A stretch of DNA of 61,950 nt, filler included. It is 3 parts of 3 records of this genome, joined end to end, with 100 filler letters (N's around TTAATTAATTAA, not from the genome) between each part and the next. Parts side by side here need not be neighbours in the genome. Positions count along the whole stretch, not along the records: positions 18,115 to 49,938 come from DRR723986_1339; 2 more parts are not named here. One strand, written 5' to 3'. Of this stretch, positions 2,322 through 28,410 are shown piece by piece. Position numbers and translations under genes: made by a program. Each line of letters opens with the position of its first letter. The stretch's first letter is position 1. The notes under the pieces are model-generated. The model saw only the letters and a program-made list of their open reading frames with translations. It was not told the origin of the DNA and ran no database searches.

Positions 2322-2338
2322 GCGTCATCCAGCCGGTC

Positions 2339-6888: not shown

Positions 6889-6894
6889 GGCATG

Positions 6895-6923: not shown

Positions 6924-6956
6924 AGTCAGGTGTCAGATCTGGTTTTTTCCCACCTG

Positions 6957-6985: not shown

Positions 6986-7032
6986 GGTCCAGCCCACGTC
7001 CCAACCGGAGTGTACGCGGAAGGGCTGCCTGC

Positions 7033-7647: not shown

Positions 7648-7716
7648 GGCTTCGGATCCCGGCTTGTCCGGCCCTTTCTGGTCCGGCACAGTTGCAGAAA
7701 GCATCCTGCAAAACCG

Positions 7717-7732
7717 TTAACAGGCTATTAAC
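7717..7732. promoter_or_regulatory. CtrA box (TTAA-N7-TTAAC)
   Basis: TTAA CAGGCTA TTAAC about 70 nt upstream of the 7647 start, in a GC-rich alphaproteobacterial contig. Confidence 0.75.
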
Positions 7733-7748
7733 CAATGCAAGGCCGTCT

Positions 7749-8429
7749 TCAGACCGGCATTGCCGGGCCAAATGCCTTTTCCAGAAACCGCCCGCCCAGC
7801 ACCATGCCGCGCTCGTCAATCGAATGGCCGAGGCCGGCCAAAAGGTGCAGGCTTGAGGAAACCCCGGCATCGTCAAGCGCCTTTTGTGCTGCCTGGGCAT
7901 GATAGCGGGCAACGACATCGTCTTCCTCGCCATGGACGATCAGCACCGGGCTTTGCGTGTTGACCGGACCCAGCTGGCTGGCTCCCGGCAACAGTCCGGA
8001 ATAACCGATCAGGGCCGCTGGCGGAGACGGGCGGCGCAGGCCGCATTGAAAGGTCATCATGGCTCCCTGGCTGAAGCCGACCAATGCCAACGCGCTGCCG
8101 TCCAGCGAATGGCGGGCCAGTTCGTCGTCCAGAAACCTGTCGAGCACCGGATGGGCGGCCTGCGCGCCGAGGCGGTATTCATTGGGATCGCGCTCCTGGA
8201 GTGCAAACCATTGCCGCCCGCCAAGCGCTTCAAAGGGAAGGTGTTCAGGAGCGTTCGGCGCAACGAAAGCCGCATCGGGAAGCTGTCCCTGCCAGGCGCG
8301 CCCGAGGTCGATCAGGTCAAGGCCATCCGTGCCGTAGCCATGCAGGATCACAACCAGCTGACGGGCGGGTTTGCCGGAGGCCGGTGCAAGACGTGGACCG
8401 TCGAGAAGGGGAGGAAAGGTGCCTGTCAA
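7749..8429 (-). CDS. Phospholipase/carboxylesterase (Abhydrolase_2/YpfH-like)
   Basis: LHGYG, GFSQGAM, HGEEDDVV, GLGHSID; probable TTG start. Confidence 0.9.
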   Translation of the reverse strand: MTGTFPPLLDGPRLAPASGKPARQLVVILHGYGTDGLDLIDLGRAWQGQLPDAAFVAPNAPEHLPFEALGGRQWFALQERDPNEYRLGAQAAHPVLDRFLDDELARHSLDGSALALVGFSQGAMMTFQCGLRRPSPPAALIGYSGLLPGASQLGPVNTQSPVLIVHGEEDDVVARYHAQAAQKALDDAGVSSSLHLLAGLGHSIDERGMVLGGRFLEKAFGPAMPV

Positions 8430-8445
8430 TTTTGGGGAAACCTGA

Positions 8446-9726: not shown

Positions 9727-9759
9727 TCCCGTCAGCTGAAGGAGGGTGACCTTATCCGA

Positions 9760-11361: not shown

Positions 11362-11481
11362 TAACGGTCCCTCCAAACGGACACTTGTTCCTAACGGCGA
11401 CACCGTAACAACTTTACGCCCCGGCACAACCGCTTTGAATGTCCCTGCACGAATTCACGTGCTGTCCGAGCGGACAGACTG

Positions 11482-12795
11482 TCACGTCTGGCTGGCGCCT
11501 GGCTTGCGGATGTGAAAAACGAGCCCCTGCACATCCTTGCCGAGTTCCTTGCGCAGAATATCCCGTTTCTCCCGTGCATAGAGAAGGCCCGCGGCCTCTG
11601 CACAGCGCTTTAGATATTCGGGCCGGTGGGCGTAGCGCCCCGTAGCATCCACGCGGTAGTCCGGCCCGTCCGACGTATCGAGATGCTCGACGCTCGCGAC
11701 GAGCATGCCACCCGGGGCAAGGGCTCCTGCAAGCGCCCGCATGAAAGGCTCCAGATCGCCGAGATAACACAGCGTGTCGACACAGACTGCCAGATCGAAT
11801 TGGGCCGGCAGGTCGGAGGACAGAAATCCAACGAGCTCACCTTCGACCAGGAAGTCGTAGACCTTCAGCGCAGCGGCCTTGCGCAGCATGCCCGGTGACA
11901 GGTCGATGCCGGTGAGCCGGGCACAGTGGTCGCGGATCAGTGGTCCGCAAAGGCCGGTCCCGCAGCCGAGATCGACCACATGGGCAAACGGCAAGTCGCG
12001 CTCCCTGGCCAGCTCCGCGACTTCCTCGGCAACAAGCTTCGGCGCCTGGTAGCCGAGCCCGTTCAGGACGTCGTCAAAGCTTTCCGAAAAGCTGTCGAAA
12101 TGATCCCGGACATAGTCCGCAGGTGCAAGCGACAGGTCTTCTCCGCGGATCGCGGCAAACTGATAGCGGATGACCGGGTCGTCCGGGTAGGTTGCGACAA
12201 GCATCTCCATATGTCGTGTGGCGACTTCGGCCCGCCCAAGCGCGCACAATACGCGCGGATGCCAGCCCTTGTCGCTCCAGACGTCTGGCGGGAACTGCAG
12301 ACACCGTTCGAAGGCGTCTGCCGCTTCCTCTCTTTTGCCGGCAAGCATCAGCGATATGCCGAAGTTGTGCCAGCCGCTGTGATTGTTCGGGTCGAGGCGC
12401 ACGACTTCTCGCAGCATGGGCAGAAGCTCGTCGTTGTTGCTGGCTTCCTGCAGCATCATCGAGATGTTCTTCCAGGCTTCCTCGTGGCGGACTTCAATTT
12501 CTACTGCGCGCAAATAGGCCTTCAAGGCTTCGTCCTTGTCGCCTGAAAGCTTCAGGATGTTGCCGAGGTTGTTCCAGGCGGAGAAATTGCCCGGGTTCCT
12601 TTCCAGGGAGGCATGGATAAGCGCAACCGCATTGTCAGCCTTGCCGGCATCGAAATGGAGCAGCCCCAGGAAATGCAAGCCGTCCGCATGGTCGGGATCT
12701 TCCGATAGCACATCCTTGTAGGCGCTGAGGGCGGCTTCCAGATTGCCGCTGCGGTGGGCGGAGATGCCCTGTTGTAATCTCTCGTCAATTTGCAT
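11482..12795 (-). CDS. TPR-repeat protein fused to a class I SAM methyltransferase
   Basis: N-terminal TPRs (AWNNLGNIL), YVRDHFDSFSESFD, DLGCGTGLCG, GIDLSPGML, GRYAH. Confidence 0.9.
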   Translation of the reverse strand: MQIDERLQQGISAHRSGNLEAALSAYKDVLSEDPDHADGLHFLGLLHFDAGKADNAVALIHASLERNPGNFSAWNNLGNILKLSGDKDEALKAYLRAVEIEVRHEEAWKNISMMLQEASNNDELLPMLREVVRLDPNNHSGWHNFGISLMLAGKREEAADAFERCLQFPPDVWSDKGWHPRVLCALGRAEVATRHMEMLVATYPDDPVIRYQFAAIRGEDLSLAPADYVRDHFDSFSESFDDVLNGLGYQAPKLVAEEVAELARERDLPFAHVVDLGCGTGLCGPLIRDHCARLTGIDLSPGMLRKAAALKVYDFLVEGELVGFLSSDLPAQFDLAVCVDTLCYLGDLEPFMRALAGALAPGGMLVASVEHLDTSDGPDYRVDATGRYAHRPEYLKRCAEAAGLLYAREKRDILRKELGKDVQGLVFHIRKPGASQT

Positions 12796-12811
12796 CTGAA
12801 AAAAATCCAAT

Positions 12812-12836
12812 AAAAAAGGGCGGTCGAACCGCCCTT
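12812..12836 (-). terminator. Rho-independent terminator of the cold-shock gene
   Basis: Minus strand AAGGGCGG-TTCGA-CCGCCCTTTTTT. Confidence 0.8.
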
Positions 12837-12863
12837 GTACCCGGTAATGACCTGTAAGTGACC

Positions 12864-13064
12864 TTACAGGACTTTCAGGTCTTCAGCCACCATTTGACCG
12901 CGGCGCCACTCCAGGTCGAATGCCACAAGCTGGCCTTCCTTCAGAGTGTCAATACCGGACCGGCGCAGGGCCGAGATGTCGACAAGGATGTCCTCGCCGT
13001 CCTGCGGTTCGATCGTGCCGATACCTCGGCGCTGATCAAACCATTTCACGTTTCCATGTAGCAT
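12864..13064 (-). CDS. Cold-shock domain protein with degenerate RNP motifs
   Basis: MLHGNVKWFDQRRGIGTIEPQDGEDILVDISALRRSGIDTLKEGQLVAFD; 66 aa. Confidence 0.85.
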   Translation of the reverse strand: MLHGNVKWFDQRRGIGTIEPQDGEDILVDISALRRSGIDTLKEGQLVAFDLEWRRGQMVAEDLKVL

Positions 13065-13333
13065 GGAGTCTTCTTTCCAATTCTTGGCATCTTGGCATAC
13101 GACGGCTTCCATAGCTGCCTTTTTCAACGCCTTGATGACAGTGTTGATGATAATACTAAAGTACTTTTCAGACCCTGCTCGGAACTGGACATCGACGTGC
13201 GCAGTCTTTTCGCGACTGCCTCACTTCAAGAAGCCGTTCCATTTGGCGGAGGTCTGGTTGCCCGGTAAAAACTCCCGGGCTTTTCCATAGTGTCTATTAG
13301 TATGGTAATGAAATTGTTAATTTCAAGACCTGC

Positions 13334-13792
13334 TCACCGATCGAGCTTCCCAAGTATAACATATTTGAGGATATCGACGACTTGTTCGGAGGTCTCGGCG
13401 ACCGCAAGAGCAGCTGCGTCAACTTCCTTGAGCGGGTGGGTCAGCGACGGGTCGTGAACGACAATCAGAGACTTGCCGAGCGCGGCAGCATAGCCGGCAT
13501 CGAAGGCCGCGTTCCATTGCTTGTATTTATCGCCGAAGCGGACCACGACGATGTCGGCTTTTTCCAGCAGCGTCCGCGTGCGGATCGCGTTCACCTTCGC
13601 GCCCTTGTGGTCGTACCAGAACTTGTTGTCCTCACCACCAAGGATGGTCGCGCCGCAATCGTCGCTGGCATCGTGATCCGTTACGGGAGAGGAAAATTCC
13701 ACCGGCAGCTTGAGTGCGGATGTGCCTTCCATGATCCTGTCACGCCAGTCGGTATGGATTTCGCCGGATAAGTAGACGCGCCAGGTGGTCAT
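13334..13792 (-). CDS. YtoQ family protein (nucleoside 2-deoxyribosyltransferase-like)
   Basis: VYLSGEIHTDWR, SDDCG, VVRFGDKYKQWNAAFDAGYAAALGK, HPLKEVD. Confidence 0.88.
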   Translation of the reverse strand: MTTWRVYLSGEIHTDWRDRIMEGTSALKLPVEFSSPVTDHDASDDCGATILGGEDNKFWYDHKGAKVNAIRTRTLLEKADIVVVRFGDKYKQWNAAFDAGYAAALGKSLIVVHDPSLTHPLKEVDAAALAVAETSEQVVDILKYVILGKLDR

Positions 13793-14003
13793 AAGGTTCT
13801 CCCATGCAAGCTTTTGAATTATGTGGCGAAAATCCCCGCCTTGTTGTGATCCGAAACTGGGGGCTGAACCAGGCAACGTCAACCCCTGCGTTCATTTGCC
13901 CCTTGGTGGAAGGGGCCGGGAGACTCGACAAGCCTGCGCAAAAACTGAAGGGTAAACCGCCGCAAAACTGAGATTGCGGTCCGTAATTTTAAGGAGCTCA
14001 TTC

Positions 14004-14639
14004 ATGTCTGCACTTTTGCTCGGAGACGAGGCACCGGATTTCGAAGCCGACAGCACGGATGGTCCGATCCGTTTTCATGAGGCGATCGAAGGGTCCTGGG
14101 CGGTTCTGTTTTCCCACCCCAAGGATTTCACGCCGGTCTGCACCACCGAACTGGGAATGACCGCCAAGCTCAAGGACAAGTTCGCAGCCCGTGGCGTCAA
14201 GGTTTTCGGCGTTTCGGTCGATCCCATCGAGGATCACCATGCCTGGGTTGGTGACATCGCGGATACGCAAGGCGTTGCCCTGAACTTCCCGCTGATTGCC
14301 GATCCGGATCGTAAGGTGGCCACCGCATACGGCATGATCCATCCCAATGCCAACGATACGCTGACCGTGCGGTCGCTGTTCGTTATCGGCCCGGACAAGA
14401 AGATCAAGCTCAAGATCGAATACCCGGCATCCACGGGCAGAAACTTCGATGAAGTCATCCGCGTGATTGACAGTCTGCAGCTCACCTCCGCCCACAAGGT
14501 CGCCACCCCGGCCAACTGGGTGTCCGGTGAGGATGTCATCATCGTCCCGGCGGTGAGCGATGAAGAGGCGAAGGAGAAATTCCCTGAAGGCTGGAAGACC
14601 CTGAAGCCTTATCTGCGTGTCGTGCCGCAGCCCAAATAA
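14004..14639 (+). CDS. 1-Cys peroxiredoxin (Prx6 type)
   Basis: FSHPKDFTPVCTTE, YPASTGRNFDE, ATPANW, PYLR. Confidence 0.95.
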   Translation: MSALLLGDEAPDFEADSTDGPIRFHEAIEGSWAVLFSHPKDFTPVCTTELGMTAKLKDKFAARGVKVFGVSVDPIEDHHAWVGDIADTQGVALNFPLIADPDRKVATAYGMIHPNANDTLTVRSLFVIGPDKKIKLKIEYPASTGRNFDEVIRVIDSLQLTSAHKVATPANWVSGEDVIIVPAVSDEEAKEKFPEGWKTLKPYLRVVPQPK

Positions 14640-14730
14640 CGGCTGAACAGAACGGATGAAACGGCTGGCGGCGCATGAAAAAAGGCGCCGCCGTCTCTAG
14701 GTCTGGTCAGGGCAGGGACCTGCGACGGGA

Positions 14731-15588
14731 TCACACCGTCGCCAGCAAGGCCTTGAGGGCAACACGGTAGTCCGGATAGCGGAATGTAAACCCAAGCTCG
14801 TCCTTGAGGCGCTGGTTGGAAACCCGCTTGTTTTCGCCGTAGAAGGACCTGGCCATCGGTGTGAGATCCGCGGTTTCGAACGGGATCTCGGGCGGGGCTT
14901 CGACGCCGAGCAGCTCCGCGGCAAAGGCCACCACATCCTGCGGCGGGGCCGGTTCATCGTCCGTGACGTTGAAAACCCGCGTCGACGGCTTTGCCATGGC
15001 AGCCTTCAATGCGCCCGCAATATCGGCAACGTGAATGCGGTTGAAGACCTGACCCGGCTTCACTAGCCGCCGCGCCGTGCCCTTCCTGAAATTCTCGAAT
15101 GCATTCCGGCCCGGGCCATAAATGCCCGAAAGGCGGAAAATCTGCACCGGCAGGTCATTCTGTTCGGCAAATGCCAACCAGGCCACTTCCGCCGCAACAC
15201 GCTGGACGGAGCGTTTGGAAACGGGGTGGAGCGGAGTTTCCTCATCGACCCAGGCACCGTCGTGATTGCCGTAGACACCGACTGTGGAGAGGTATCCTAT
15301 CCAGCGCGGTTTCGCGCCGGCAATCTCATTGGCATATTGGTTCAGCACCGGGTCGCCGGCTTCATTCGGAGCAATCGAGACCAGTATATGCGTCGCTTGC
15401 TTCAGTGCTTCGGCAACGCCGTCGCCTTGAGAATTGCCGTCGAAGAGAAACGGTTCGACACCCAGTGTCCGGAGCGCCTCCATCTTGTCCGAAGAACGCG
15501 TTGTGCCGCCGATCCAGTCGAACTGGTCACGCACTTCTTCCACGAACGCCTTGGAGGAAAACCCGGTGCCAAAGATGAACAGACGCAT
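14731..15588 (-). CDS. Atypical SDR / NAD-dependent epimerase (YeeZ-like)
   Basis: IFGTGFS, YLSTVGVYG, RLSGIYGPGR, FNRIHVADIA. Confidence 0.88.
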   Translation of the reverse strand: MRLFIFGTGFSSKAFVEEVRDQFDWIGGTTRSSDKMEALRTLGVEPFLFDGNSQGDGVAEALKQATHILVSIAPNEAGDPVLNQYANEIAGAKPRWIGYLSTVGVYGNHDGAWVDEETPLHPVSKRSVQRVAAEVAWLAFAEQNDLPVQIFRLSGIYGPGRNAFENFRKGTARRLVKPGQVFNRIHVADIAGALKAAMAKPSTRVFNVTDDEPAPPQDVVAFAAELLGVEAPPEIPFETADLTPMARSFYGENKRVSNQRLKDELGFTFRYPDYRVALKALLATV

Positions 15589-15593
15589 AGGTT

Positions 15594-16421
15594 CTAAAGC
15601 TCCAGATGCTTGCGGCGGATTTCATAAAGCGCAACGCCCGTGGCAACGGCCAGGTTCAGGCTGTCGGCCTGTCCGACCTGCGGAATGCGGATCAAGGTAC
15701 GGCAGGCGGCTGCCATGTCGTCTTCCAGGCCCTTCTGCTCGTTGCCCATGACCAGCAGAACCGGCTCGGCATAGTCGGGCGTGCGATAGTCTACCGATCC
15801 CTTCAGGTGGGTGGCCGCGACGGTGCCGGGCCATTTTTCGGCCAGTGACTTGAATTCGTCCTTGCCGAGTTTGGCCAGCGGCACATGAAACAGCGATCCC
15901 ATGGTGGCGCGCACCGCTTCAACCGCGAAGGGATCCGTGCAATCACCGACCAGCATGACACCCGCACCACCGACCGCATCGACCGTACGGATGATCGTGC
16001 CGAGGTTGCCCGGATCGCGCACCCGGTCGAGTGCGACCCAGAGCGTGGTACCGGCGGGATCAATGTCGCGGGCTCCCAGAAGCTTCTGCTCGTAAACACC
16101 GACAACCATCTGCGGATTGTCCTTGCGCGTCATCGCGGACATGACGGCGGTCGATGCTTCCAGGATCAGGGCGCCGCGTGCCTTCGCGGCAGCAGCGGCC
16201 TTCTGCGCGACAGGATTGTCCCGCGCTTCAGGCCCGAGCGCGAGATAACGCACGCCCCAGCCGGCTTCCAGCGCATCGGTGGCCAGCTTCAGGCCTTCGG
16301 CCACGAACAGGCCCGACTGGCTGCGGTGCTTGCGCTGCGCGACGAGCCCCTTGATTTCCTTGACGATCGGGTTGGAATGGCTGGTGATCTGTTTCACCGC
16401 CCCCTGGCGTTTTTCGATCAT
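15594..16421 (-). CDS. TrmH/SpoU family RNA methyltransferase
   Basis: DPGNLGTIIRT, VRATMGS, GNEQKGL, DSLNLAVA. Confidence 0.93.
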   Translation of the reverse strand: MIEKRQGAVKQITSHSNPIVKEIKGLVAQRKHRSQSGLFVAEGLKLATDALEAGWGVRYLALGPEARDNPVAQKAAAAAKARGALILEASTAVMSAMTRKDNPQMVVGVYEQKLLGARDIDPAGTTLWVALDRVRDPGNLGTIIRTVDAVGGAGVMLVGDCTDPFAVEAVRATMGSLFHVPLAKLGKDEFKSLAEKWPGTVAATHLKGSVDYRTPDYAEPVLLVMGNEQKGLEDDMAAACRTLIRIPQVGQADSLNLAVATGVALYEIRRKHLEL

Positions 16422-17380
16422 CTGCTGCTCCAGCGTGAAAAGAGCGACGTGGACAGTGCGCGCTTGCCGTCCTCCTCGCGGATGACCAGTTCGCCGGATT
16501 CCAGCAGGCCGCCTTCGGTGTCCATGGTTTCTGCCATGAGTTCGTGAATGGACACGAAACTGGAGCGGATCGCATAGGCGGTCAGGATCATGAACAATGC
16601 GTCCTTGTCCAGAAGCTGCTTCAGATCCGCGAGCATGCCGGGCAGGCTGGTGTAGATGTCCCAGACCTCGCCCTTCGGGCCGCGGCCGTATTTCGGTGGG
16701 TCGAGAATGATGCCGTCATAGGTGTTGCCGCGCCGCACTTCGCGGGCAACAAATTTCGAAGCGTCCTCGCAGATCCATCGGATCGGCAGATCTTCGAGAC
16801 CTGACATCTCCTGGTTCTCGCGGGCATAACCGATCGCCTTCTTGGAGGCGTCCACATGGGTCACCTGCGCCCCTTCCGTCGCCGGCAGCAACGAGGCAAG
16901 GCCGGTGTAGCCGAAAAGGTTCAGGATCTTCAGCGGCTTTTCCGGTGCGCGCTCGCGTTCAGCGCGGATCTTGCCGTTGACCCAGTCCCAATGGGCGGCC
17001 TGTTCGGGGAAGACGCCGACGTGGCGGAACGACATGAAGCGACCGTTGTAGCGAACAGGCCCATATGACATCGGCCAGGTTTCCGGCACGCTTCCGGAAA
17101 ACTTCCAGCGGCCCGGGCCTTCTTCTTCCGTGTCGCCGGAAAAGACGGCATCGGCACGGTTCCAGACACTTTCCTTCTGCCGCCGGGCCCCCATGGCCTG
17201 CGGTTCCGGACGCACGATGGTGAACCGGCCATAACGCTCCAGCTTCTCGCCCTGGCCCATGTCCAGAAGCCGATAGTCCTTCCAGCCCTTGGTTTCCAGG
17301 ATCACCGGCCAGCTCTGGTGTGCAGGCTCGCCGGACGGGGCATAGGTGGAGGCACTGGTCTGATCCGCCACGGGTCTCAC
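16418..17380 (-). CDS. Class I SAM-dependent (rRNA) methyltransferase, RlmI/RlmK-like
   Basis: GVFPEQ, LNLFGYTG, HVDASKKA, ILDPPKYGRG; 4-nt overlap with the TrmH gene. Confidence 0.88.
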   Translation of the reverse strand: MRPVADQTSASTYAPSGEPAHQSWPVILETKGWKDYRLLDMGQGEKLERYGRFTIVRPEPQAMGARRQKESVWNRADAVFSGDTEEEGPGRWKFSGSVPETWPMSYGPVRYNGRFMSFRHVGVFPEQAAHWDWVNGKIRAERERAPEKPLKILNLFGYTGLASLLPATEGAQVTHVDASKKAIGYARENQEMSGLEDLPIRWICEDASKFVAREVRRGNTYDGIILDPPKYGRGPKGEVWDIYTSLPGMLADLKQLLDKDALFMILTAYAIRSSFVSIHELMAETMDTEGGLLESGELVIREEDGKRALSTSLFSRWSSR

Positions 17381-17575
17381 TCGTTTTCTGTCAGGTTTGA
17401 AGTTGTTCCGCCATAGAACATCCTGCCTTCTTTTGAAAGTAGATTAGACGTTCCTGTGTGGTCGAAAAGGTTTCCTGGCCGGCTTTTGAACCCGTCCGGT
17501 CCAAAGGTTTCGTGGACGGCTACAGCAGCACCGCAAAGGCAATTTCCCGCTGCCGTCGGCGATCCTGTCGAGCGC

Positions 17576-17616
17576 AAAAGAAAAGGGCGGGGAGCCGAAG
17601 CTCACCCGCCCTCTTT
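17576..17616 (-). terminator. Terminator-like hairpin after the MCP gene
   Basis: Plus strand AAAAGAAAAGGGCGGGGAGC-CGAA-GCTCACCCGCCCTCTTT; U-rich tail on the minus strand. Confidence 0.75.
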
Positions 17617-17632
17617 GGTCAGATGTGTGCGA

Positions 17633-18014
17633 TCAAGCCGCGGCAACCTCGGAGAGGAACTGCTCGACTTCACGCTTCAGTTCGTGGGTCTTCTGGGTCA
17701 GTTCTCCGGAAGCCGACAGCACCATGTCCGCAGACGAGGAGGTCTGGTCAACGGCCTGCGAAAGCTGCGACATGGAAGAGGACACGGCACCGGTTCCTTC
17801 CGCCGCGCGCTGCACGTTCTGCGAAATCTCCGCGGTGGCGGCGCCCTGCTGTTCGACGGCCGATGCGATGGCCGTGGTATAGGTGTTCACCTCGGTCATG
17901 GTCTCCGCGATCTCGCCAATGGCAACGACGGATTCCTTGGTCGCGTTCTGGATCTCGGTGATCTGGCTGGAGATCTCCTCCGTTGCCTTGGAGGTCTGGG
18001 TGGCCAGCTCCTTC
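17633..18014 (-). CDS. Methyl-accepting chemotaxis protein, C-terminal fragment
   Basis: KELATQTSKATEEISSQI...IASAVEQQGAATAEISQNV signalling-domain motifs; cut by the contig end. Confidence 0.9.
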
Positions 18015-18114
18015 NNNNNNNNNNNNNNNNNNNNNNNNNNNNNNNNNNNNNNNNNNNNTTAATTAATTAANNNNNNNNNNNNNNNNNNNNNNNNNNNNNN
18101 NNNNNNNNNNNNNN
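18015..18114. other. Artificial contig-joining spacer
   Basis: N44-TTAATTAATTAA-N44 (stops in all six frames); flanking genes are truncated. Confidence 0.98.
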
Positions 18115-20253: not shown

Positions 20254-21552
20254 ATGCCCAACAGAACACTGACCTACGCACTGACCCTGCTGGTGCTGCT
20301 CTGCGCCAGGCCAAGCCTGGCCAGCAGCGGCGCGACGATAGCGGCCATCTATATCGATGACCAACCCCAGCAGAGCGTCACCGGCGTAACGGTGTCGGTG
20401 GGCAAGGAACGTATGAGTGGCCCGCTGAACCTGCAGCAGCCCATACCCTCCGGAGCACGCATCCAGACACCCCCGCGGGTCACCCTGGACCTGCTCACCC
20501 AGAACCAGAACAGCCTGCGGGTGGCGCCGAATTCCGATGTCCGCATTGGGGTAAGCGCCCAGGGCGAGAACCACTCGGTCAGCAGCGGCAGCCTGTTCGC
20601 CTGGGTGAAGACAAAGCTGGACTTCTTCAACATCAGCGACAGTAACGGCCGCTTCCAGGGGGCCGCAAAATCAACCGCCTATGGCGCTACTGTCGGTCGC
20701 GGCGGCATCAGTTTCACTACCAGCGAAGGCGTCATCCGGGTCAACCAGCAGGTGCCGGTCAGCGTCGCCGGTACCGCGGTCAAGACCAATGGGCGCAGCC
20801 CGCTGACAGTGACCCGCTCTTCCAGCCTGGCGGCTGACCAGGGCTCGCAATCCTTCGACTTCGAGGCCTTCCAGTCACAACCGCAGGACTTTGCCAGCTT
20901 CGATGACGCCACCGACAGCCTGCAACAGTGGATTGCCCAGGCAGAGGCCGCCCACGACTGGGAGGCGGCAGTCGACCTGTATTCCACCCTGGGAGGGATG
21001 TATCTCGACGAGGGCGAGGCAGACGAGGCGGTGAGCTACCTCAACCGGGCCCTGGAGATCAATTACACCAATGGTTCCGGCCTGCTTGACCCGAGTTTCT
21101 CGGAAGATCACACCTTGCTGGGCTATGCCTTCCTGGAGCTGGAGTGGCCCATCCTGGCGCTGCTCAATTTCCGCCGGGCAGAAGAAATCCTGCTGGAAAT
21201 CGATCCCTATAACCCTTTGCTTGCCGATTCATGGATCGACCAGGCCGAAGCACTGCAGCAACTGGGCGACGAGCAGAGCTCGGTTGAACTCGCGCTCCAG
21301 GCAGCGGAACTGCTGGGTTACCAGTTAGACGAGGACATGGCACTGCTGGACGAGTGGATGGAGTCGGATGATCTGGAAATGCAGTACCTGGCCATCGACT
21401 ATGCCTGGGAAGTCAGCGATCGCCTGATGAGTATGGGCTGGGCGCTCCAGTTTGCCCAGCAGCCCGCGGAAGCGGATGAGTTATTCGCTACCGCCGGGGA
21501 ACTGGAGGATTTCATCAGCGACTGGGAAGCAGAAGTCGATGCCTATCGCTAA
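20254..21552 (+). CDS. Exported protein with a FecR-like beta domain and a very acidic TPR-like C-terminus
   Basis: Signal peptide; FecR-pattern segment GARIQT...SLRVAPNSDVRI...AAKSTAYGATV...TTSEGVIRV; TPR-like helices (LYSTLGGMYLDEGEADEAVSYLNRALEI). Confidence 0.7.
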   Translation: MPNRTLTYALTLLVLLCARPSLASSGATIAAIYIDDQPQQSVTGVTVSVGKERMSGPLNLQQPIPSGARIQTPPRVTLDLLTQNQNSLRVAPNSDVRIGVSAQGENHSVSSGSLFAWVKTKLDFFNISDSNGRFQGAAKSTAYGATVGRGGISFTTSEGVIRVNQQVPVSVAGTAVKTNGRSPLTVTRSSSLAADQGSQSFDFEAFQSQPQDFASFDDATDSLQQWIAQAEAAHDWEAAVDLYSTLGGMYLDEGEADEAVSYLNRALEINYTNGSGLLDPSFSEDHTLLGYAFLELEWPILALLNFRRAEEILLEIDPYNPLLADSWIDQAEALQQLGDEQSSVELALQAAELLGYQLDEDMALLDEWMESDDLEMQYLAIDYAWEVSDRLMSMGWALQFAQQPAEADELFATAGELEDFISDWEAEVDAYR

Positions 21553-23173
21553 ACGACTGGCGGCGTATACCGCCATCTTCCTGGCCCTGCTGCTGCTCGT
21601 CGGGAGCCTGCTGGGCGCCGCCTGGCGCCCGCTTGATTACATCGTGTTCAAGGCGCTGGCGATCGGTGACTCCCCGCAGCTTGAAGACGACATCCGGATC
21701 ATTGACCTGCCCTACTACAAGGCCGGCTCCGGCTCCTTCGACCTGCCTGACTTCCGCGCCCGCACCGTTGACCTGCTGCAGCAGATCGGCGAGCTGAGCG
21801 CCAACTATGAGCGGCCACGCGCGGTAATTCTTGACCTCTACTACGGGAGCGACCAACGCCTTGTGCCGGAGCTATTGGCCGCCATCGCGGGGCTGCAGGA
21901 GAAAAAAATCCGGGTCTACGGCGTGTTCGACACCATGGGCCTGGCGGGCACCTCCTTTGAACAGCGCCGGGCGGATCACGCCATGGCAATCTACGAGCGC
22001 CTCGACGGCGGTCTGCTGCATACCCGGTTCGACCAGAAGCTGGGAGCCATCACCTACCGTTCCCATCTCGAGATACACTACGACCAGGAAGATATGCAGG
22101 CCAGGGTTATGGCGCTGCCTCTGCGCGTTGCCATGGATCTGAACCAGATCGAGGAACCTGACCCAGTGCGGGAGTATGTGCTGCCCCACGGTGACCAGGC
22201 CGATGTAACGAGCAAGACACTCCAGTTCACTCACCCGCAGGGCAGTACCAGCGGCGGCCGTTTCCTGCAGCAGGGGACCGAGCTGGCCGCGCCTGACATC
22301 CACGACAAGTTGCTGATCGTCGCCAGCTTCGAGGGCGACCGCGTGGTCCAGGGTCGACCCGGCCCCGAGCACCTTGCCTGGGCGCTGGATGACCAGCGCA
22401 ACGGCAACCGCAATGCGCGGATACCGATGAACCAGCCCCTGATTATCGTCGGCGTGGTGCTGTTTGTGGCCGCGTGGACCGCGCTGGTTTATGCCGTGCT
22501 GTTCAAATACGCCAAGTCCCTGCAGACCCGGCCTGGCGCACTGGCGTTACTGGCCCTGCTCGCCGGACTTGCTGCCATCGGTGGACTATCGGCCCTGGTG
22601 CTGATGATTGGCCAGGTGCTGCCAGTCGGCCTGGCGCTGTTCGCGGCGGCGCTGGCCGCAGCGGTGGCCTGGCACTTCGCCAATCGGTTCCTGGTGACCG
22701 GCGTGGCGGAAGGTTCCGGCAAGTACGACGTGTTTATCAGTTATTCACGCAAAGACGGCGACTGGGTCTACAACAGCCTGTACAAACCGCTGAGCGAGCT
22801 GCGCAAAGCCGATGGCTCGGCTCTGTCGATCTTCTTCGATCGCAACGAGATCAGCCTGGGGGAGGCTTTTACCTCGAAATATATGTGGGCGATCGTCGAT
22901 AGCCAGCATTTCATACCGGTATTCTCGGAAAACTATTACGGCACGCGTAGCCACGGCCGCAATGAAATGGACCTGGCCTACAAGCGCCATGTCGAAAAGA
23001 GTATCCGAATACTTCCAGTGGCTTTCTCCGATGACAGCGTGCCGGAGATTTACAATGGATTGAATTACCTGAACGTGACCACCGAGACCGAATTTTTCGC
23101 CGCGCTGGCAGCCGAACTGACCGCGCCGGAAGCGTCAGCCAGGGACGATTCGGATTCCGCAGGTAGCGCCTGA
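21539..23173 (+). CDS. CHASE2-like sensor - 3TM - TIR domain membrane receptor
   Basis: N-terminal TM, PLDY..F, IRIIDL, PRAVILDLYY, KLLIVAS, PGPEHLAWAL (CHASE2 pattern); three TMs; then YDVFISYSRKDGDWV...IFFDRNEISLGE...AIVDSQHFIPVFSENY...RNEMDLA...ILPV (TIR); overlaps the upstream gene by 14 nt. Confidence 0.85.
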   Translation: MPIAKRLAAYTAIFLALLLLVGSLLGAAWRPLDYIVFKALAIGDSPQLEDDIRIIDLPYYKAGSGSFDLPDFRARTVDLLQQIGELSANYERPRAVILDLYYGSDQRLVPELLAAIAGLQEKKIRVYGVFDTMGLAGTSFEQRRADHAMAIYERLDGGLLHTRFDQKLGAITYRSHLEIHYDQEDMQARVMALPLRVAMDLNQIEEPDPVREYVLPHGDQADVTSKTLQFTHPQGSTSGGRFLQQGTELAAPDIHDKLLIVASFEGDRVVQGRPGPEHLAWALDDQRNGNRNARIPMNQPLIIVGVVLFVAAWTALVYAVLFKYAKSLQTRPGALALLALLAGLAAIGGLSALVLMIGQVLPVGLALFAAALAAAVAWHFANRFLVTGVAEGSGKYDVFISYSRKDGDWVYNSLYKPLSELRKADGSALSIFFDRNEISLGEAFTSKYMWAIVDSQHFIPVFSENYYGTRSHGRNEMDLAYKRHVEKSIRILPVAFSDDSVPEIYNGLNYLNVTTETEFFAALAAELTAPEASARDDSDSAGSA

Positions 23174-23207
23174 CCTCGCGGCCAGGCGTAGCGGCGTCCT
23201 GCCTGGC

Positions 23208-23369
23208 TCAGGTCTGGGTACCGGGCGGTCCCGGGCGCTGGGTGCCGGGGGGTCCCGGACGCTGAGTCCCGGGCGGTCCCGGGCGTTGGGTGCCGGGGGG
23301 TCCCGGACGCTGGGTCCCGGGCGGTCCCGGACGTTCTGTACCTTCCTTTTCCTTGTCCTGGTCAGACAT
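23208..23369 (-). CDS. 53-aa tandem-repeat peptide MSDQDKEKEGTE(RPGPPGTQ)5T
   Basis: AGGAG 6 nt before the ATG at 23369; repeat units differ only at third codon positions. Confidence 0.8.
   Translation of the reverse strand: MSDQDKEKEGTERPGPPGTQRPGPPGTQRPGPPGTQRPGPPGTQRPGPPGTQT
23214..23333 (-). repeat. Five tandem 24-nt units encoding RPGPPGTQ
   Basis: Consensus CGY CCG GGA CCS CCC GGB ACY CAR; units alternate between two sub-types (48-nt higher-order period). Confidence 0.95.
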
Positions 23370-23422
23370 GCACATCTCCTTGCGTTTACCTCTGCCTAAA
23401 CCTAGTCGCTGGATGGGGATTG

Positions 23423-25420
23423 TCAATCTGGCACCGTGGCCAGGATCGCATCAAAGCGCGCGGGATCCAGCGCCCGGAGCTTGACCAGGTCAGGATCCTC
23501 GAGCAGGAGCTCCGCCGAGAAGCCCAGCGACCTTGCCTGTGCCAGCGCCACATAGGCCGACTCCGGGTTGGCCAGGGCCCAGTGCACCAGGGCGGCAAAG
23601 TAGTGCGAAGTCGGCGGCGAACTGCCGGTAGCGAGCATGCGCTGGGTATAGGCCAGCGCCTCCGACTCGTGCCCCGAGTACGCGTGGTACAAGCCGAGCA
23701 GGCCCAGCGTTTCCCAGTCGTTGGGGTTACGTGACAGGCGTTGTTCGGCGAGGGAGATGGCTTGGGCATAGTTGGCCAGTTCCTGCTCCCTGTCACCCAG
23801 CGCACGATAGCTCTCGGCGATCCGCCCCCAGACCCGATGATCATCGGCAATGTTGCCGGCGGCGGCCTCATGCATCGCCGCGGCCCGGGCATAGTTGCCC
23901 TGGTAGTAATACAGCAGCCCGAGGTTGGTGTAGCTGATACCGAGGGAGCCGATGCTGTCGGCGCCTGCCTGCTCTATCACCTGCATCCACACCTGCTCCG
24001 CCTCGGCTTCCCGGCCGAGCATGTACAGGGCTGAGCCCTGGCCGATGAGTGCGCTGAGCAGGTCAGGTACCTTCACCAGGACCTCGTCATAGGCAAGCCG
24101 GGCTTTGTCATACTGCGCGGCAGCTATATAGAAATTCGCCAGCACAAGCCGGGTTTCCCAGTTGCTTTCGTCAAGGGCGACCGCACGCTGGAGATAGTCC
24201 TCGGCCTCCTCGTAGCGCCCGGTATCACCATAGGTCTTGCCGATTTCCTGCAAGGTCCGCGGGCGATCAGGGTAGTCGCGGTCGGCGGCGAACAGGTAAT
24301 CCAGTGACTTGGCGTATTCTCCCGCCTCGCGGTAGAGCACGCCCAGGGCGATCTGCACATCCCAGCCCGGTATGCCTGACTCGGACTTCGCCAGCGCCCG
24401 GAGGCAGGCCCGTTCCGCCAGGCTAAATGCCTCAGCTTCCCGGCTGTGGCTGTACTGCGCCAGTTGCGCGTCGCAGATGCCGGCAAAGGCGTCGGCGTAG
24501 TCCGGGTCGATCTCAACCGCTTCGGTAAAAAATGCGACCGCCTCATCAAGAATCGCGTCATTCCACGGCAGGCGCAGCTGGGCGCGGCCCTTCAGGTAGG
24601 CGTTGTAGGCGTCAAAGTTGGTGGTCGATGGACCAAGGGGCAGCGCACCCTCCTCCATGATCATCGGACGAATCGCACGCACGACTGCTCCGGCGATCTG
24701 GTCCTGCAGCGCGAATATGTCCTCCAGGGTGCCGTCATAGGTCTCCGACCAGAGGTGGTAGCCGTTGCTGGTATCGATCAACTGGGCGGTGACCCGCACG
24801 GCATCGCCGGTTTTGCGGACACTGCCCTCCAGCAGGGTCGCTACGCCCAGCGAGCGCCCGATAGCCATCACATCCTCGGTGGTGTCGCGAAAATGAAACG
24901 ACGAGGTTCTGGCGGCGACACGCAGGCCTTCAACCTGGGCCAGCACATTGAGCAGTTCTTCGGAAATACCATCACTGAAATAGGCATTGTCCGGGTCGCT
25001 GCTCATATTGGCGAAGGGCAGCACCGCAATCGACTGCGCCTGCGGATCGTCGACCGCCCAGGGAATCGTGCCGCGCTGCAGGTATAAACGTTCGTAATAG
25101 AGGTAACCAACCATCAGTACCAGGGTGCAGATCAGCACGAACTGCAAGGCATGGGCAGTGGATATCCTCGGCGGCGCGGCTTGTGCTTCCGGTGAGGGAA
25201 TAAGCCCCTCAGACGAGAGGTCAAAAACCCAGGACAGGAGCATGGCCACCGGGAAACCGCCAGCCATAATGTAGAGCATCAGGCGCATGGACCATTCAGG
25301 CAGCCCCATGATAGGCAGCATGATGTCGGCGACCTGAAGCACGGCCCAGGCCGCCGCCGCATAGGCGAAGGCAACCCTGAATACCTTACGGCGCTTCAGT
25401 TCGGCGATAAACGCCTGCAT
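23423..25420 (-). CDS. Membrane-anchored TolB-like(N)/TPR protein
   Basis: ELKRRKVFRVAFAY plus 3 TMs, SIAVLPFANMSSDPDNAYFSDGISEELLN, LEGSVRK, HLWSETYD, then multiple TPRs. Confidence 0.88.
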   Translation of the reverse strand: MQAFIAELKRRKVFRVAFAYAAAAWAVLQVADIMLPIMGLPEWSMRLMLYIMAGGFPVAMLLSWVFDLSSEGLIPSPEAQAAPPRISTAHALQFVLICTLVLMVGYLYYERLYLQRGTIPWAVDDPQAQSIAVLPFANMSSDPDNAYFSDGISEELLNVLAQVEGLRVAARTSSFHFRDTTEDVMAIGRSLGVATLLEGSVRKTGDAVRVTAQLIDTSNGYHLWSETYDGTLEDIFALQDQIAGAVVRAIRPMIMEEGALPLGPSTTNFDAYNAYLKGRAQLRLPWNDAILDEAVAFFTEAVEIDPDYADAFAGICDAQLAQYSHSREAEAFSLAERACLRALAKSESGIPGWDVQIALGVLYREAGEYAKSLDYLFAADRDYPDRPRTLQEIGKTYGDTGRYEEAEDYLQRAVALDESNWETRLVLANFYIAAAQYDKARLAYDEVLVKVPDLLSALIGQGSALYMLGREAEAEQVWMQVIEQAGADSIGSLGISYTNLGLLYYYQGNYARAAAMHEAAAGNIADDHRVWGRIAESYRALGDREQELANYAQAISLAEQRLSRNPNDWETLGLLGLYHAYSGHESEALAYTQRMLATGSSPPTSHYFAALVHWALANPESAYVALAQARSLGFSAELLLEDPDLVKLRALDPARFDAILATVPD

Positions 25421-25520
25421 AGAGATTGGCTCTTGTGCTGAATCCGGCCTGACTATAGCACCTCCCCGATGCAGCCTGAACTGAAATGCGCCTGCGGCAG
25501 GCTTGTTCCATGCGTTGCAA

Positions 25521-25548
25521 TTGCTATTCGGAACGGCTGCTCTATGAT
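25521..25548 (+). promoter_or_regulatory. Putative sigma70 promoter of the caspase operon
   Basis: TTGCTA-N16-TATGAT about 40 nt upstream of ATG 25589. Confidence 0.4.
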
Positions 25549-25588
25549 TAGGGAACACTATTAGCTGAACGGCATTGATACCCGCCCG

Positions 25589-26548
25589 ATGAATAAGCGA
25601 GCACTACTGGTCGGCATCCAGGACTACGATTACGCACCGCAGCTTTTCTGCTGCGCCGAAGACGCCCGGGCAATGGCCGATGTCCTCGGACGCCACGCTG
25701 ACGGCGCGCTCAATTACGAATGCCTGGCCCTGACCAGTGATCAGGGACGAATCACCGAGGCCGAACTGCGCGGCAAGGTACGCGAGCTGTTTGCCGACGT
25801 GGCCGGCGGCGAGGTGATCTTCTACTTTTCGGGGCACGGGGTCATAACCGATACCGGCGGCTACCTGGTAACCCAGGACGGCCAGGTAAATGACCAGGGT
25901 TACCCGATGTCCGAACTGCTGCAGATCGCAAACCGCAGCGGCGTTGGCTCGGTCCTGCTGATTCTCGACTGCTGCCATAGCGGCAGTATCGGTGGTAGCG
26001 GTGCAGACCCTTACCAGAACCAGGTGCTGCTCAGCGAGGGCGTCACCATCCTGGCCGCCTCATCACCGCAACAGGAATCCCGCGAGGGTCTGGAGCACAG
26101 CCTGTTCACTGAACTGGTGCTGGACGCGCTCAATGGTGGCGCCGCTGATATCCGGGGCAATGTGTCCGCGGCCTCTTTGTACGGCTATGTAGAGCAGTCT
26201 CTGGGGGCCTGGCAGCAGCGCCCCATGTACAAGTCCAACGCGCGCAGGCTGAACCCGATCAGACACTGCGAACCGGCGGTACCTGACCAGTTGCTGCGCC
26301 AGCTGCCGACACTGTTCACCTCGCCGCAACTGGCCATTGCGCTCGACCCGGGCTTTGAACACACCGATCCCAGTGCCGAGGCGGAAAAGGTCGCAATGTT
26401 CGACCAGTTCAAGGCCCTGCGCAACGCACGCCTGCTGGAGACGGCCGGCGGCGAAGACCTGTACTACGCTGCCATGCGCGGCGGCTCAGTCAAACTCACA
26501 CCGCTGGGACGATTTTACTGGCAGCTGGTAAAGAACCGGCGGATATAG
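25589..26548 (+). CDS. Caspase-like cysteine protease (peptidase C14) with a C-terminal accessory domain
   Basis: RALLVGI, FYFSGHG (His), ILDCCHSG (Cys), TILAAS, SLFT..LDALNGGAAD; C-tail LDPGFE...YYAAMRGGSVKLTPLGRFYWQLVKNRRI. Confidence 0.93.
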   Translation: MNKRALLVGIQDYDYAPQLFCCAEDARAMADVLGRHADGALNYECLALTSDQGRITEAELRGKVRELFADVAGGEVIFYFSGHGVITDTGGYLVTQDGQVNDQGYPMSELLQIANRSGVGSVLLILDCCHSGSIGGSGADPYQNQVLLSEGVTILAASSPQQESREGLEHSLFTELVLDALNGGAADIRGNVSAASLYGYVEQSLGAWQQRPMYKSNARRLNPIRHCEPAVPDQLLRQLPTLFTSPQLAIALDPGFEHTDPSAEAEKVAMFDQFKALRNARLLETAGGEDLYYAAMRGGSVKLTPLGRFYWQLVKNRRI

Positions 26549-26557
26549 GAGCGTTAC

Positions 26558-27076
26558 ATGTCGGACTCCGATACTTCCAGGGCCGTGCGGCCAGACGAAT
26601 ACGGGGACAGTTACCGGGCGGACTTCCTTACCATGTACCATGAGTACGTGGCGTCTGCCGACCGGATTTCAGAGCGCAGGACCGCCGCCAATACTTTCTT
26701 TGTCAGCGCCAACGCGGCGCTTCTCGGCCTCAACGGCTACTTCCTGCAGAAAGACGGGGAGCCTTCCCTGCTGATCAACGATGCCCTGTGGGTACCCGCA
26801 GTAGCGGCCATCCTCATGTGCTGGATCTGGCGCGGCCTGATTTCATCCTACAAAAGCCTTAACGGCGCCAAGTTCGGGGTCATCCTGGCCATGGAGCGCC
26901 AGCTTCCCGCGGCACCGTATACGGACGAGTGGGCAAACCTGCAGGACAGCCAGCGCAGCAGCAAACACATTCCGCTCAGTGATTCGGAGAAGTACGTGCC
27001 CATGGTCTTCATGATCGTCAACGTGGGTATCTTCACCCTGAGCTTTACCAATTTCATTCTTGGCAAGGTCAGCTAG
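26558..27076 (+). CDS. RipA-like small oligomeric membrane protein (2 core TMs plus a hydrophobic C-tail)
   Basis: Y..YV.SADRISERR..AN.FFVS.N, W...I.SY..LN.AKF.VI..ME.QLP..PY..EW pattern, recalled from Francisella RipA-like proteins; GGAG RBS. Confidence 0.7.
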   Translation: MSDSDTSRAVRPDEYGDSYRADFLTMYHEYVASADRISERRTAANTFFVSANAALLGLNGYFLQKDGEPSLLINDALWVPAVAAILMCWIWRGLISSYKSLNGAKFGVILAMERQLPAAPYTDEWANLQDSQRSSKHIPLSDSEKYVPMVFMIVNVGIFTLSFTNFILGKVS

Positions 27077-27085
27077 GAGATCAGT

Positions 27086-27931
27086 ATGCCCAGGGGCTTA
27101 TCCCTACATATCGGAGTCAACGTCTGCGACCCGGATCACTACGGCGGCTGGTCCGGCCCGCTGGAATGTTGCGAAGCGGATGCGGACGCCATTCACGGCC
27201 TGGCCGTGGAAGCCGGATTCGAACCGACGGTGCTGAAGACGGCACAGGCCACGCGTACTGCCGTGGCCGATGCCATCAGCTCGGCGGCTGCCACCTGTGA
27301 GGCCGGCGACTTCTTGCTGGTGAGCTACGCGGGGCACGGTGGCCAGATTGCCGACGTCGATGGCGATGAGAGCGACCAGATCGACGAGACCTGGTGCCTG
27401 TACGACGGCCAGTTACTCGACGACGAACTGAACGTCCTATGGGCAAAATTCCATGCGGGCGTGCGTATCCTGGTGCTGTCAGACAGTTGTCATAGCGGCT
27501 CGGTAACCAAGAGCGTCGCCAGCCGGCGCGGGGCGATGGGCGCTCGCAACGCCCTGTTCTCCGGGACAGCGCCACAGGCGGCGGGAAAGGCCCGCTTCAT
27601 GCCCCGACAGGCCGCGGCAGCGACCCAGCGCAAGAACCGTGATTTTTACGCCGGGCTGCAGACCTCCCTCCCCAACCCGCGACCGGCGATCAAGGCCAGC
27701 GTCAGGCTGCTCTCGGGCTGCCAGGATAACCAGCTCTCCACCGAACTGGACGGCAACGGGGTCTTTACCCGCAATGTGCTGCGGGTATGGGACAAGGGTA
27801 ACTTCCAGGGCGACTATCGGGAATTTCACCGCGCTGTTATCACCAATATGCACGAAAGCCAGCAACCCAATCACCTGGTGATTGGCGGTGAAAATTCCGA
27901 GTTCGACGCTCAGCGACCGTTTTCCATCTGA
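27086..27931 (+). CDS. Metacaspase-like peptidase C14
   Basis: SYAGHGGQ, DGDESDQIDETWCLYD..LLDDEL, LSDSCHSGS, LLSGCQDNQLS, GVFT, QQPN. Confidence 0.93.
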   Translation: MPRGLSLHIGVNVCDPDHYGGWSGPLECCEADADAIHGLAVEAGFEPTVLKTAQATRTAVADAISSAAATCEAGDFLLVSYAGHGGQIADVDGDESDQIDETWCLYDGQLLDDELNVLWAKFHAGVRILVLSDSCHSGSVTKSVASRRGAMGARNALFSGTAPQAAGKARFMPRQAAAATQRKNRDFYAGLQTSLPNPRPAIKASVRLLSGCQDNQLSTELDGNGVFTRNVLRVWDKGNFQGDYREFHRAVITNMHESQQPNHLVIGGENSEFDAQRPFSI

Positions 27932-27965
27932 GGTATTTCCACAACCCTGCCCTGTTCAGGCAGGC

Positions 27966-27991
27966 ATAAAAAAAGGCGCCGTAATGGCGCC
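27966..27991 (-). terminator. Terminator hairpin between convergent operons
   Basis: ATAAAAAAAGGCGCC-GTAAT-GGCGCC; U-tract on the minus strand, ending the SnoaL transcript. Confidence 0.75.
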
Positions 27992-28011
27992 CTGGAGATG
28001 AGAAACCGCTA

Positions 28012-28410
28012 TCAGGTCAGCGGGTTTTCACCACTCATGTAGATGTAAACTTCCTGGAACTTGTCACCGCGGATCCGCCAGAAGTTGGTGTTGTACAACA
28101 GCGTGGTATTGCCGTCGGCGTCAACCAGTTCTGCCGTGAAGCAGGCAGTGATACGTCCATTGGTTTCATCCACCGTGCAGGTGAAATCCCGATGGATGAT
28201 CGTGTCCCAGGCGCCCATGAAATCGATAAACATGCGCTTGATGTTGTCCTTGCCATCGTGCACGGCAAAGGCAGTTTGCACGGTGATCATGGCATTGTCG
28301 TGGAAACAGTCGAGGACCGCCTCCAGGTTTTTCTTGTCGACGTTGCCGAAGTACTTGTTCAACGCGAGATCAACCAGCTCATCGCGCGACAGGGAAGATT
28401 GGTATTGCAT
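28012..28410 (-). CDS. SnoaL/NTF2-like protein
   Basis: YFGNVD...VLDCFHDNA...HDGKDNIKRMF...NFWRIRGDKFQEVYIYMSGEN. Confidence 0.85.
   Translation of the reverse strand: MQYQSSLSRDELVDLALNKYFGNVDKKNLEAVLDCFHDNAMITVQTAFAVHDGKDNIKRMFIDFMGAWDTIIHRDFTCTVDETNGRITACFTAELVDADGNTTLLYNTNFWRIRGDKFQEVYIYMSGENPLT

Follow-up and report, generated by a model that had tools for sequence, protein, structure and literature searches.

A ThsE-like caspase that heads an operon shared with an 8xMP membrane protein and another caspase, near a membrane TIR protein

Type IV Thoeris, as described in the accessible text of a preprint, consists of a ThsB TIR protein plus a caspase-like protease (Rousset et al., bioRxiv 10.1101/2024.10.24.620036). 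According to the same text, the catalytic cysteine of the studied caspase is Cys129, the C-terminal domain is proposed as the site that binds the TIR-made signal, and systems are detected as a caspase homolog plus a TIR_2 or ThsB match with at most one gene in between. The effector was named ThsE by Yirmiya et al. (bioRxiv 10.64898/2025.12.03.692087), and the available parts of the two preprints describe the studied members of its family as anti-phage. These Thoeris papers, in the text available, present systems as one TIR gene plus one effector gene and do not name a membrane-spanning TIR. Here, we analyze a caspase gene, P0001, in a stretch of DNA of 61,950 nucleotides (nt), hereafter the window. 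The window is made of three contigs joined by N spacers (18015–18114 and 49939–50038, each N run around TTAATTAATTAA), and therefore only 18115–49938 is contiguous with the caspase locus. Both this family of caspases and its association with TIR proteins have been published. The operon, the kind of TIR protein found with P0001, and a conserved TPR membrane gene are what set this locus apart.

A sequence-only reading of the window had described P0001 as an open reading frame (ORF) with an intact His/Cys dyad and a C-terminal domain matching that of caspases encoded beside small TIR genes in type IV Thoeris. Both features are real. P0001 matches Peptidase_C14 (PF00656; E 4.1e-14, 53.3 bits, cut-off 21.4) and its dyad residues, His83 in FSGHG and Cys129 in LDCCHSG, do not vary in either of two alignments, one with 27 and one with 58 sequences. 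The tail that follows the protease domain (94 amino acids [aa], LDPGFE...KLTPLGRFYWQLVKNRRI) is conserved among homologs. In the 58-sequence alignment, 80 columns show conservation of 85% or more among the 57 sequences other than P0001, and P0001 has the consensus residue at 79 of them. The sole departure is a Leu to Ile change at position 77, and all 26 conserved columns from residue 205 on are kept. The tail is still under the constraint of its family. The AlphaFold2 (AF2) model has a predicted local distance difference test (pLDDT) score of 94.2 for the whole protein and 96.4 for the tail alone (residues 226–319). The top structural matches of the model are the MALT1 paracaspase and metacaspases. 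In fold searches, nearly all matches of the tail were winged-helix proteins (MarR, PadR, and ArsR types), with middling scores (VIA-align Z 5.2–6.6; Foldseek E 0.026 at best). We read the tail as a predicted winged-helix fold, and its function is not assignable from these matches. Sequence searches of solved structures, with P0001 as a single sequence and as a profile, gave only spurious matches or N-terminal matches to metacaspases and MALT1, and no structure of the family.

A protein search found 1686 homologs of P0001. The best 120 of them share 50–91% identity with P0001 and cover 74–100% of the query, and most have a coverage of 98–100% and a length of 312–351 aa; P0001 also matches phrog_18397 over its full length (E 1.7e-57). 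A scan in which each prokaryote species was represented by a single genome gave 105 relatives; we kept 80, which come from many bacterial phyla plus Methanosarcinaceae. ORFs were called in these 80 loci and the neighbors were clustered. The biggest neighbor cluster contains 63 proteins from 45 loci, 37 of them encoded immediately upstream of the caspase, and three of its representatives match Pfam ThsB_TIR. When a profile from this cluster was used, a ThsB-like TIR (roughly 125–210 aa) was found at most 300 nt from the caspase in 47 of the 80 loci and at most 2.5 kb away in 52. P0001 aligns with the TIR-adjacent caspases over its full length, in agreement with what the sequence-only reading had said of the tail. 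The same link was seen in enterobacteria: P0001 found a Salmonella record, and a search of 5426 complete E. coli genomes with the DNA of this record gave matches in 29, which in 10 cases spanned 80% or more of the query. In one of these genomes, the gene of a 133-aa "TIR domain-containing protein" is followed 8 nt later by a "caspase family protein" gene, the product of which aligns with residues 3–319 of P0001 (35% identity, E 2e-63). A blastn search of E. coli with a Photobacterium TIR-caspase locus gave no match. Judged from its sequence, P0001 is a member of the type IV Thoeris effector (ThsE) family. Its top NCBIfam match is the EACC1-associated caspase (NF047832), at 103.3 bits below the cut-off of 140, and TIR-adjacent relatives also fall under this cut-off (93–115 bits); no ThsE-specific model in NCBIfam or PADLOC matched P0001.

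P0001 is followed by P0003, an 8xMP-family membrane protein gene, and by P0004, the gene of a second, stand-alone caspase (Table 1). Both intergenic gaps measure 9 nt, and the three genes therefore form one operon with the caspase first. A promoter and terminator scan of 23100–28100 found sites no commoner than in shuffles. Outside the window, the caspase-8xMP-caspase order occurs in only three of the 80 loci: L001 (Halieaceae), L002 (Pseudomonadales), and L003 (Lysobacterales), where the caspase is 70%, 66%, and 55% identical to P0001, respectively, and where orthologs of the 8xMP protein and of the second caspase hold the corresponding positions. In a quick maximum-likelihood tree of 81 rows, the window and these three loci form one clade with a Shimodaira-Hasegawa-like approximate likelihood ratio test (SH-aLRT) support of 100. 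The operon is found in a rare gammaproteobacterial clade. This clade lies in a 42-row half of the tree together with 17 TIR-adjacent, 4 TIR-near, and 17 TIR-less rows, and 30 of the 39 rows in the other half are TIR-adjacent. The tree is rooted at its midpoint only and so we do not infer an order of events. The divergent TPR membrane gene next to the caspase, P0002, is kept in L001 (E 2e-247) and L002 (E 1e-207), on which its conservation was judged, the L003 sequence being cut at the caspase. The conserved membrane TPR protein is part of the block.

The two other products of the operon belong to families with TIR links of their own. P0003 matches the 8xMP profile PF24838 at 110.7 bits (cut-off 30) over profile positions 3–134 of 136. 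The profile matched 16 of 401 sampled Pseudomonadota genomes, in 17 places, and we surveyed the neighbors in 15 loci, leaving out one fragment and one sub-threshold match. In four of the 15, a TIR gene lies immediately upstream of the 8xMP gene on the same strand, of the TIR_2/SEFIR (L180), TIR_2 (L181), or ThsB_TIR (L182, L186) type, and so 8xMP is itself a TIR-linked membrane protein. A solved-structure search with P0003 gave no match, and a literature search on 8xMP or octameric membrane protein gave no relevant paper. P0004 has a His84 and a Cys135 that are invariant in 30 sequences, and its family occurs in varied contexts among 80 metagenome loci. No 8xMP or tailed caspase gene was found beside P0004 relatives in these metagenome loci (0 of 80), so they add no further example of the operon. 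A TIR-nSTAND1 protein is encoded directly downstream in five of them (checked with Pfam for two).

The cluster-derived profile found no ThsB-like TIR ORF across the whole window, and the absence of an adjacent soluble TIR, noted in the sequence-only reading, therefore extends to all three contigs. The sole TIR-like ORF is P0005, on the caspase contig: its end is 2.4 kb upstream of the point where the caspase gene begins, a single gene (P0002) lies in between, and its TIR_2 match scores 53.9 bits (cut-off 28). P0005 is a multi-pass membrane protein of roughly 545 aa. It had been called a CHASE2-TIR protein; the TIR and the distance stand, but CHASE2 (PF05226) has no match at E≤1 in the N-terminal 395 aa of P0005 itself. 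The support for CHASE2 is indirect: of three full-length homologs tested, P0145 (29.4 bits) and P0156 (35.3 bits) pass the CHASE2 cut-off of 26.3 and P0171 (25.3 bits) does not, and a precomputed PF05226 match is present in 3 of the 49 clusters of the P0005 family. Hydrophobic segments were called with a simple Kyte-Doolittle scan. We read one N-terminal and three C-proximal membrane segments in P0005, with an outer domain in between, a topology that fits the layout of a CHASE2 sensor. A Lys/Arg-rich loop follows the first of the three C-proximal segments, which would place the TIR domain in the cytoplasm. The 49 clusters have a uniform build of ~540 aa each, and the TIR domain is their best conserved part: Asn504-Glu505 is kept in at least 95% of 50 sequences, and we take Glu505 to be catalytic from its position in the usual TIR motif. 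The P0006 stop overlaps the likely P0005 start, so the two proteins are probably co-translated; the N-terminal 232 aa of P0006 matched no family.

A large TIR_2 protein is encoded near the operon in all four loci. In L001, the TIR gene lies 237 nt past the TPR gene on the same strand; its product of 347 aa carries the TIR at the N-terminus, has one strong hydrophobic segment, and includes a tail of 150 aa. In L003, the gene starts 13 nt after the second caspase, also on the same strand, and its product of 968 aa combines a TIR with a single hydrophobic segment and WD40 repeats. In both proteins, a run of Arg/Lys stands before the single segment, and the TIR domains would thus face the cell interior. 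The L002 TIR belongs to a cytosolic SIR2_2-TIR_2 protein, encoded beside an nSTAND1 nucleoside triphosphatase (NTPase) on the strand opposite to the second caspase; the NTPase gene is ~1.3 kb and the SIR2-TIR gene ~3.7 kb past that caspase. The L001 genome (4.0 Mb, completeness not given) contains a single TIR_2 match, which is the neighbor of the operon, and no ThsB_TIR match. This lone TIR_2 match beside the operon is the strongest single item that we have. The L002 genome has seven TIR_2 matches and one ThsB match, and the L003 genome has three of each, which are the same three genes. A wider TIR search showed that membrane TIR_2 proteins directly flank ThsE-like caspases in two other clades, with a multi-pass protein upstream in L031 and a protein with a TIR and one segment downstream in L076. 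The sequence-only reading had proposed a caspase rewired to a transmembrane receptor: this idea gains support by comparison, with large TIR_2 proteins at all three other operon loci, two of them single-pass with the TIR on the positive-charge side; the support is gene context from four loci, and the functional link is putative.

How does the window locus compare with described systems? By the detection rule of type IV Thoeris, it would formally be counted: the dyad is intact, the TIR_2 match of P0005 passes its cut-off, and only P0002 lies between the two genes. However, the locus has no small soluble TIR. Its TIR protein is large and membrane-bound, has an outer domain that is CHASE2-like, and is encoded in another transcription unit. 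The caspase gene shares its transcript with those of an 8xMP protein and another caspase, in a block that includes a membrane TPR protein. The two-gene TIR plus 8xMP operons (L180, L181, L182, L186) share with the window a PF24838 protein linked with TIR genes, but the 8xMP gene of the window follows a caspase and not a TIR gene, and its product is one of three candidate effectors. The EACC1/EACC2 caspase conflict systems, as presented in the accessible parts of their description (PMC8195603), have variable sensor domains, CHASE2 among them; they also combine a caspase-fold protease with extracellular CHASE2-type sensing, and they supply the best NCBIfam match of P0001. In contrast, P0001 scores below the EACC1 model cut-off, no EACC module was seen, and the CHASE2-like domain is fused to a TIR and not to a caspase. 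The available text of the literature consulted (10.1101/2024.10.24.620036, 10.64898/2025.12.03.692087, PMC13243611, PMC8195603) did not yield a description of a large membrane-sensor TIR replacing ThsB, of a caspase-8xMP-caspase operon, or of the conserved TPR gene, which the supplementary tables of the preprints may list. Nor did literature searches yield a paper on this layout.

We observe a ThsE-like caspase with a conserved architecture, an operon structure, and a recurrent nearness of TIR genes. From this gene context we infer, at about even chances, a multi-effector variant of Thoeris that is activated by a TIR signal and driven by a receptor-like membrane TIR. The partner, the signal, and the outcome would then be as follows. 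An envelope cue would be sensed by the membrane TIR protein, here the CHASE2-like-transmembrane-TIR protein P0005, probably with its co-translated partner P0006. The cytoplasmic TIR domain would turn nicotinamide adenine dinucleotide (NAD+) into a nucleotide signal, which would bind the C-terminal domain of P0001 and possibly the 8xMP protein too. The proteolysis and membrane damage thereby unleashed would stop the spread of the phage or kill the cell.

Several points weigh against this reading. P0001 is placed in the ThsE family by its architecture, by its gene context, and by homology from end to end with members linked to TIR genes; the comparison was with these members and not with the validated PsCaspase and EcCaspase sequences. 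The operon is known from four loci only, and these share descent. The TIR domains of the four loci are not orthologs of one another, with identities of 30% or less over parts of the sequence, and hence the pairing of TIR and operon is by type and not by descent; the TIR genes also differ in position and orientation. No homolog of P0005 was found in the L001, L002, and L003 genomes with P0005 as the query, and the SIR2-TIR/NTPase pair of L002 may be a separate system. Although P0005 and the caspase are on the same strand, they are not one operon because the opposite-strand TPR gene separates them. A ThsB gene elsewhere in the source genome is possible. TIR domains can be NAD+-depleting effectors and not signal makers, and the accessible text of the Thoeris diversity preprint sets such TIRs aside (bioRxiv 10.64898/2025.12.03.692087). 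Lastly, 28 of the 80 loci lack a ThsB-like TIR within 2.5 kb; nine of them have another TIR-like ORF and 19 have none in the fetched DNA, so ThsE-like caspases may also work without a neighboring TIR.

Some of these points fit another explanation, which we think unlikely although well short of negligible: the operon would be an orphan effector cassette that answers a TIR encoded elsewhere, or that has lost its ThsB, while P0005 and P0006 would form an independent sensor with the TIR as its own NAD+-depleting effector. The separate transcription units, the search with P0005 that found no homolog in the other operon genomes, and the effector TIRs set aside in the preprint all suit it, and the overlapping P0006 and P0005 look self-contained. 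Partners in trans are possible in L002 and L003, given their seven and three TIR_2 matches per genome, but not so readily in L001, where the single TIR_2 match is the neighbor and no ThsB match exists. Nor does the explanation sit well with the L003 TIR gene, which begins right behind the second caspase, or with the C-terminal domain of the caspase, the full conservation of which argues against its decay.

It is distinctly unlikely, in our view, that the operon is independent of TIR proteins. In that case, the winged-helix tail would in this clade sense some other cue, such as a phage protein, a nucleic acid, or a different ligand; alternatively, the first caspase would be controlled by the second one or by the 8xMP protein, in the style of a protease cascade. 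The predicted fold of the tail does resemble MarR/PadR-type proteins, which have DNA or a variety of small molecules as ligands, 19 of the 80 family loci lack a TIR-like ORF in the fetched DNA, and other TIR-less loci carry SLOG-like (18 of 80) or nucleoside 2-deoxyribosyltransferase-like partners. Yet the conserved residues of the tail are identical to those of TIR-adjacent members, TIR genes are near all four operon loci, and 8xMP proteins are TIR-linked elsewhere. That the block is not for defense but is an envelope-stress or developmental cell-death module, along the lines suggested for caspase/CHASE2 conflict systems of bacteria that have multicellular habits, with the TPR membrane protein and the CHASE2-like sensor reading the state of the cell's own envelope, we regard as very improbable: the contig flanks of ordinary metabolism genes free of recognized defense genes, the membrane TPR protein conserved beside the operon, and the caspase-CHASE2 fusions described among such systems in the available text of Kaur et al. 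(eLife 2021, PMC8195603) are compatible with it, but the family members studied in the type IV Thoeris/ThsE preprints are, in the text seen, anti-phage and the E. coli relative has neighbors whose annotations read Kiwa KwaB-like and Pycsar system effector family protein.

Should the ThsE caspase indeed be driven by a TIR that spans the membrane and carries an outer sensor, as in the Thoeris-variant reading that we favor, bacterial TIR signaling could begin at the envelope. Nothing tested to date would then parallel animal Toll-like receptors as closely. The parallel is an analogy only: both arrangements have an outer sensor, a membrane span, an inner TIR, and caspase-family proteases downstream, but bacterial TIRs signal via NAD+-derived small molecules and Toll-like receptor pathways via adaptor scaffolds, and we claim no homology for the sensor parts. 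More tentatively, and with the balance leaning against it, we suggest an outside-in pathway like the Toll-like receptor route, in which an envelope sensor-TIR would emit a nucleotide signal to the ThsE caspase, the 8xMP protein, and perhaps the second caspase simultaneously, and in which lineages would swap outer sensors (CHASE2-like, WD40 propeller, or a domain not recognized) on one effector cassette. The cassette brings together three candidate effectors, each from a family that is separately TIR-linked elsewhere, weakly so for the second caspase (5 of 80 loci). It therefore offers a compact system in which to ask if a single signal is able to trigger several effectors.

Table 1. Genes and domains of the six-gene block, in window coordinates
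Feature	Position	Strand	Basis or remark
P0006, TPR repeats; N-terminus hydrophobic, taken to be an export signal	20254–21552	+	Pfam TPR; sequence reading
P0005, CHASE2-like sensor, transmembrane segments, cytoplasmic TIR_2	21452–23173	+	likely start Met29 (nt 21536)
P0005 TIR_2 domain	residues 427–552 (nt 22730–23107)	+	Pfam TIR_2
P0002, membrane-anchored TPR protein, divergent from caspase operon	23423–25558	-	Pfam TPR families, three hydrophobic segments; likely start, judged from sequence, Met at ORF residue 47 (~nt 25420)
P0001, ThsE-family caspase-like protease, 319 aa	25589–26548	+	Pfam Peptidase_C14, homology, AF2 model
P0001 C14 domain	residues 3–217 (nt 25595–26239)	+	Pfam
P0001 dyad	His83 (25835–25837), Cys129 (25973–25975)	+	alignment
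P0001 winged-helix C-terminal domain	~residues 226–319 (nt 26264–26545)	+	predicted fold
P0003, 8xMP-family membrane protein, 172 aa, candidate membrane effector	26558–27076	+	Pfam PF24838, hydrophobic segments
P0004, second stand-alone C14 caspase, 281 aa (YAGHGG His, SDSCHSG Cys)	27086–27931	+	Pfam Peptidase_C14, 66.2 bits

The block lies on the middle contig (18115–49938), flanked by a truncated gcvP on one side and SnoaL/racemase genes on the other. These flanking genes belong to ordinary metabolism, and no recognized defense gene was found on this contig. The membrane TPR gene between the caspase and the TIR gene, like the operon with an 8xMP and a second caspase gene, was not part of what the sequence-only reading had said of P0001.

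The assembly of the window may mix organisms. The nearest genome compared, G001, matches contig 1 only (1–18014, 98%). The gcvP on contig 2 is a single chain, and its best matches in G001 are 35–40% identical and split over two frames. Contig 3 has a guanine-plus-cytosine content of 41–51%, versus ~60% elsewhere in the window. G001 contains neither an ortholog of P0001 (best match 26% identity, E 4.8e-6) nor one of P0005.

We also noted a number of neighbors around relatives of the block. No truncated TIR was seen past the TPR gene at the L002 contig end, which carries PGPPDVQR repeated in tandem and, in addition, the first part of a zinc-ribbon-like ORF (L002:1–377). One 8xMP gene, in a Pseudomonadota metagenome-assembled genome (L079:5342–10956), stands with genes of a TIR protein, a trypsin-like protease, a 450-aa distant ThsE-like caspase, and a subtilase, with tyrosinase genes adjacent. 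After the P0004 relatives in L089 (4041–9844), L131, and L146 comes the gene of a TIR-nSTAND1-TPR protein (~1060 aa), and after it that of a caspase fused to a C-terminal TIR-like segment.

Upstream of the E. coli TIR-caspase pair (L191:1944–4675, NZ_CP125885.1), its strand carries a gene with the annotation "Pycsar system effector family protein" and a 262-aa hypothetical gene, and a gene annotated as Kiwa KwaB-like is also near; the locus looks like a four-gene form of the TIR-caspase system. We considered the Pycsar-annotated protein as a relative of 8xMP and rejected this for want of any similarity.

Among the ThsE-like family loci, a SLOG/YpsA-like gene (median 165 aa) lies immediately downstream of the caspase in 18 of 80, whether a TIR gene is present or not (L006–L010, L013, L014, L016–L018, L021, L022, L028, L036, L044, L045, L070, L080); the assignment is from a weak Pfam match, E 6.6e-4 in one of two tested. 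TIR-less caspases of Acidobacteriota and Methanosarcinaceae (L004, L005, L010, L013, L074, L075) adjoin nucleoside 2-deoxyribosyltransferase-like proteins, again by weak matches (E 1.4e-4 and 4e-3 in the two tested), and these partners may replace the TIR in TIR-less loci. Longer caspases of 411–434 aa (L027, L033, L035, L037, L038) form a mainly Chloroflexota clade, with one row labeled Proteobacteria, and have a conserved upstream protein of ~240 aa that belongs to no Pfam family.

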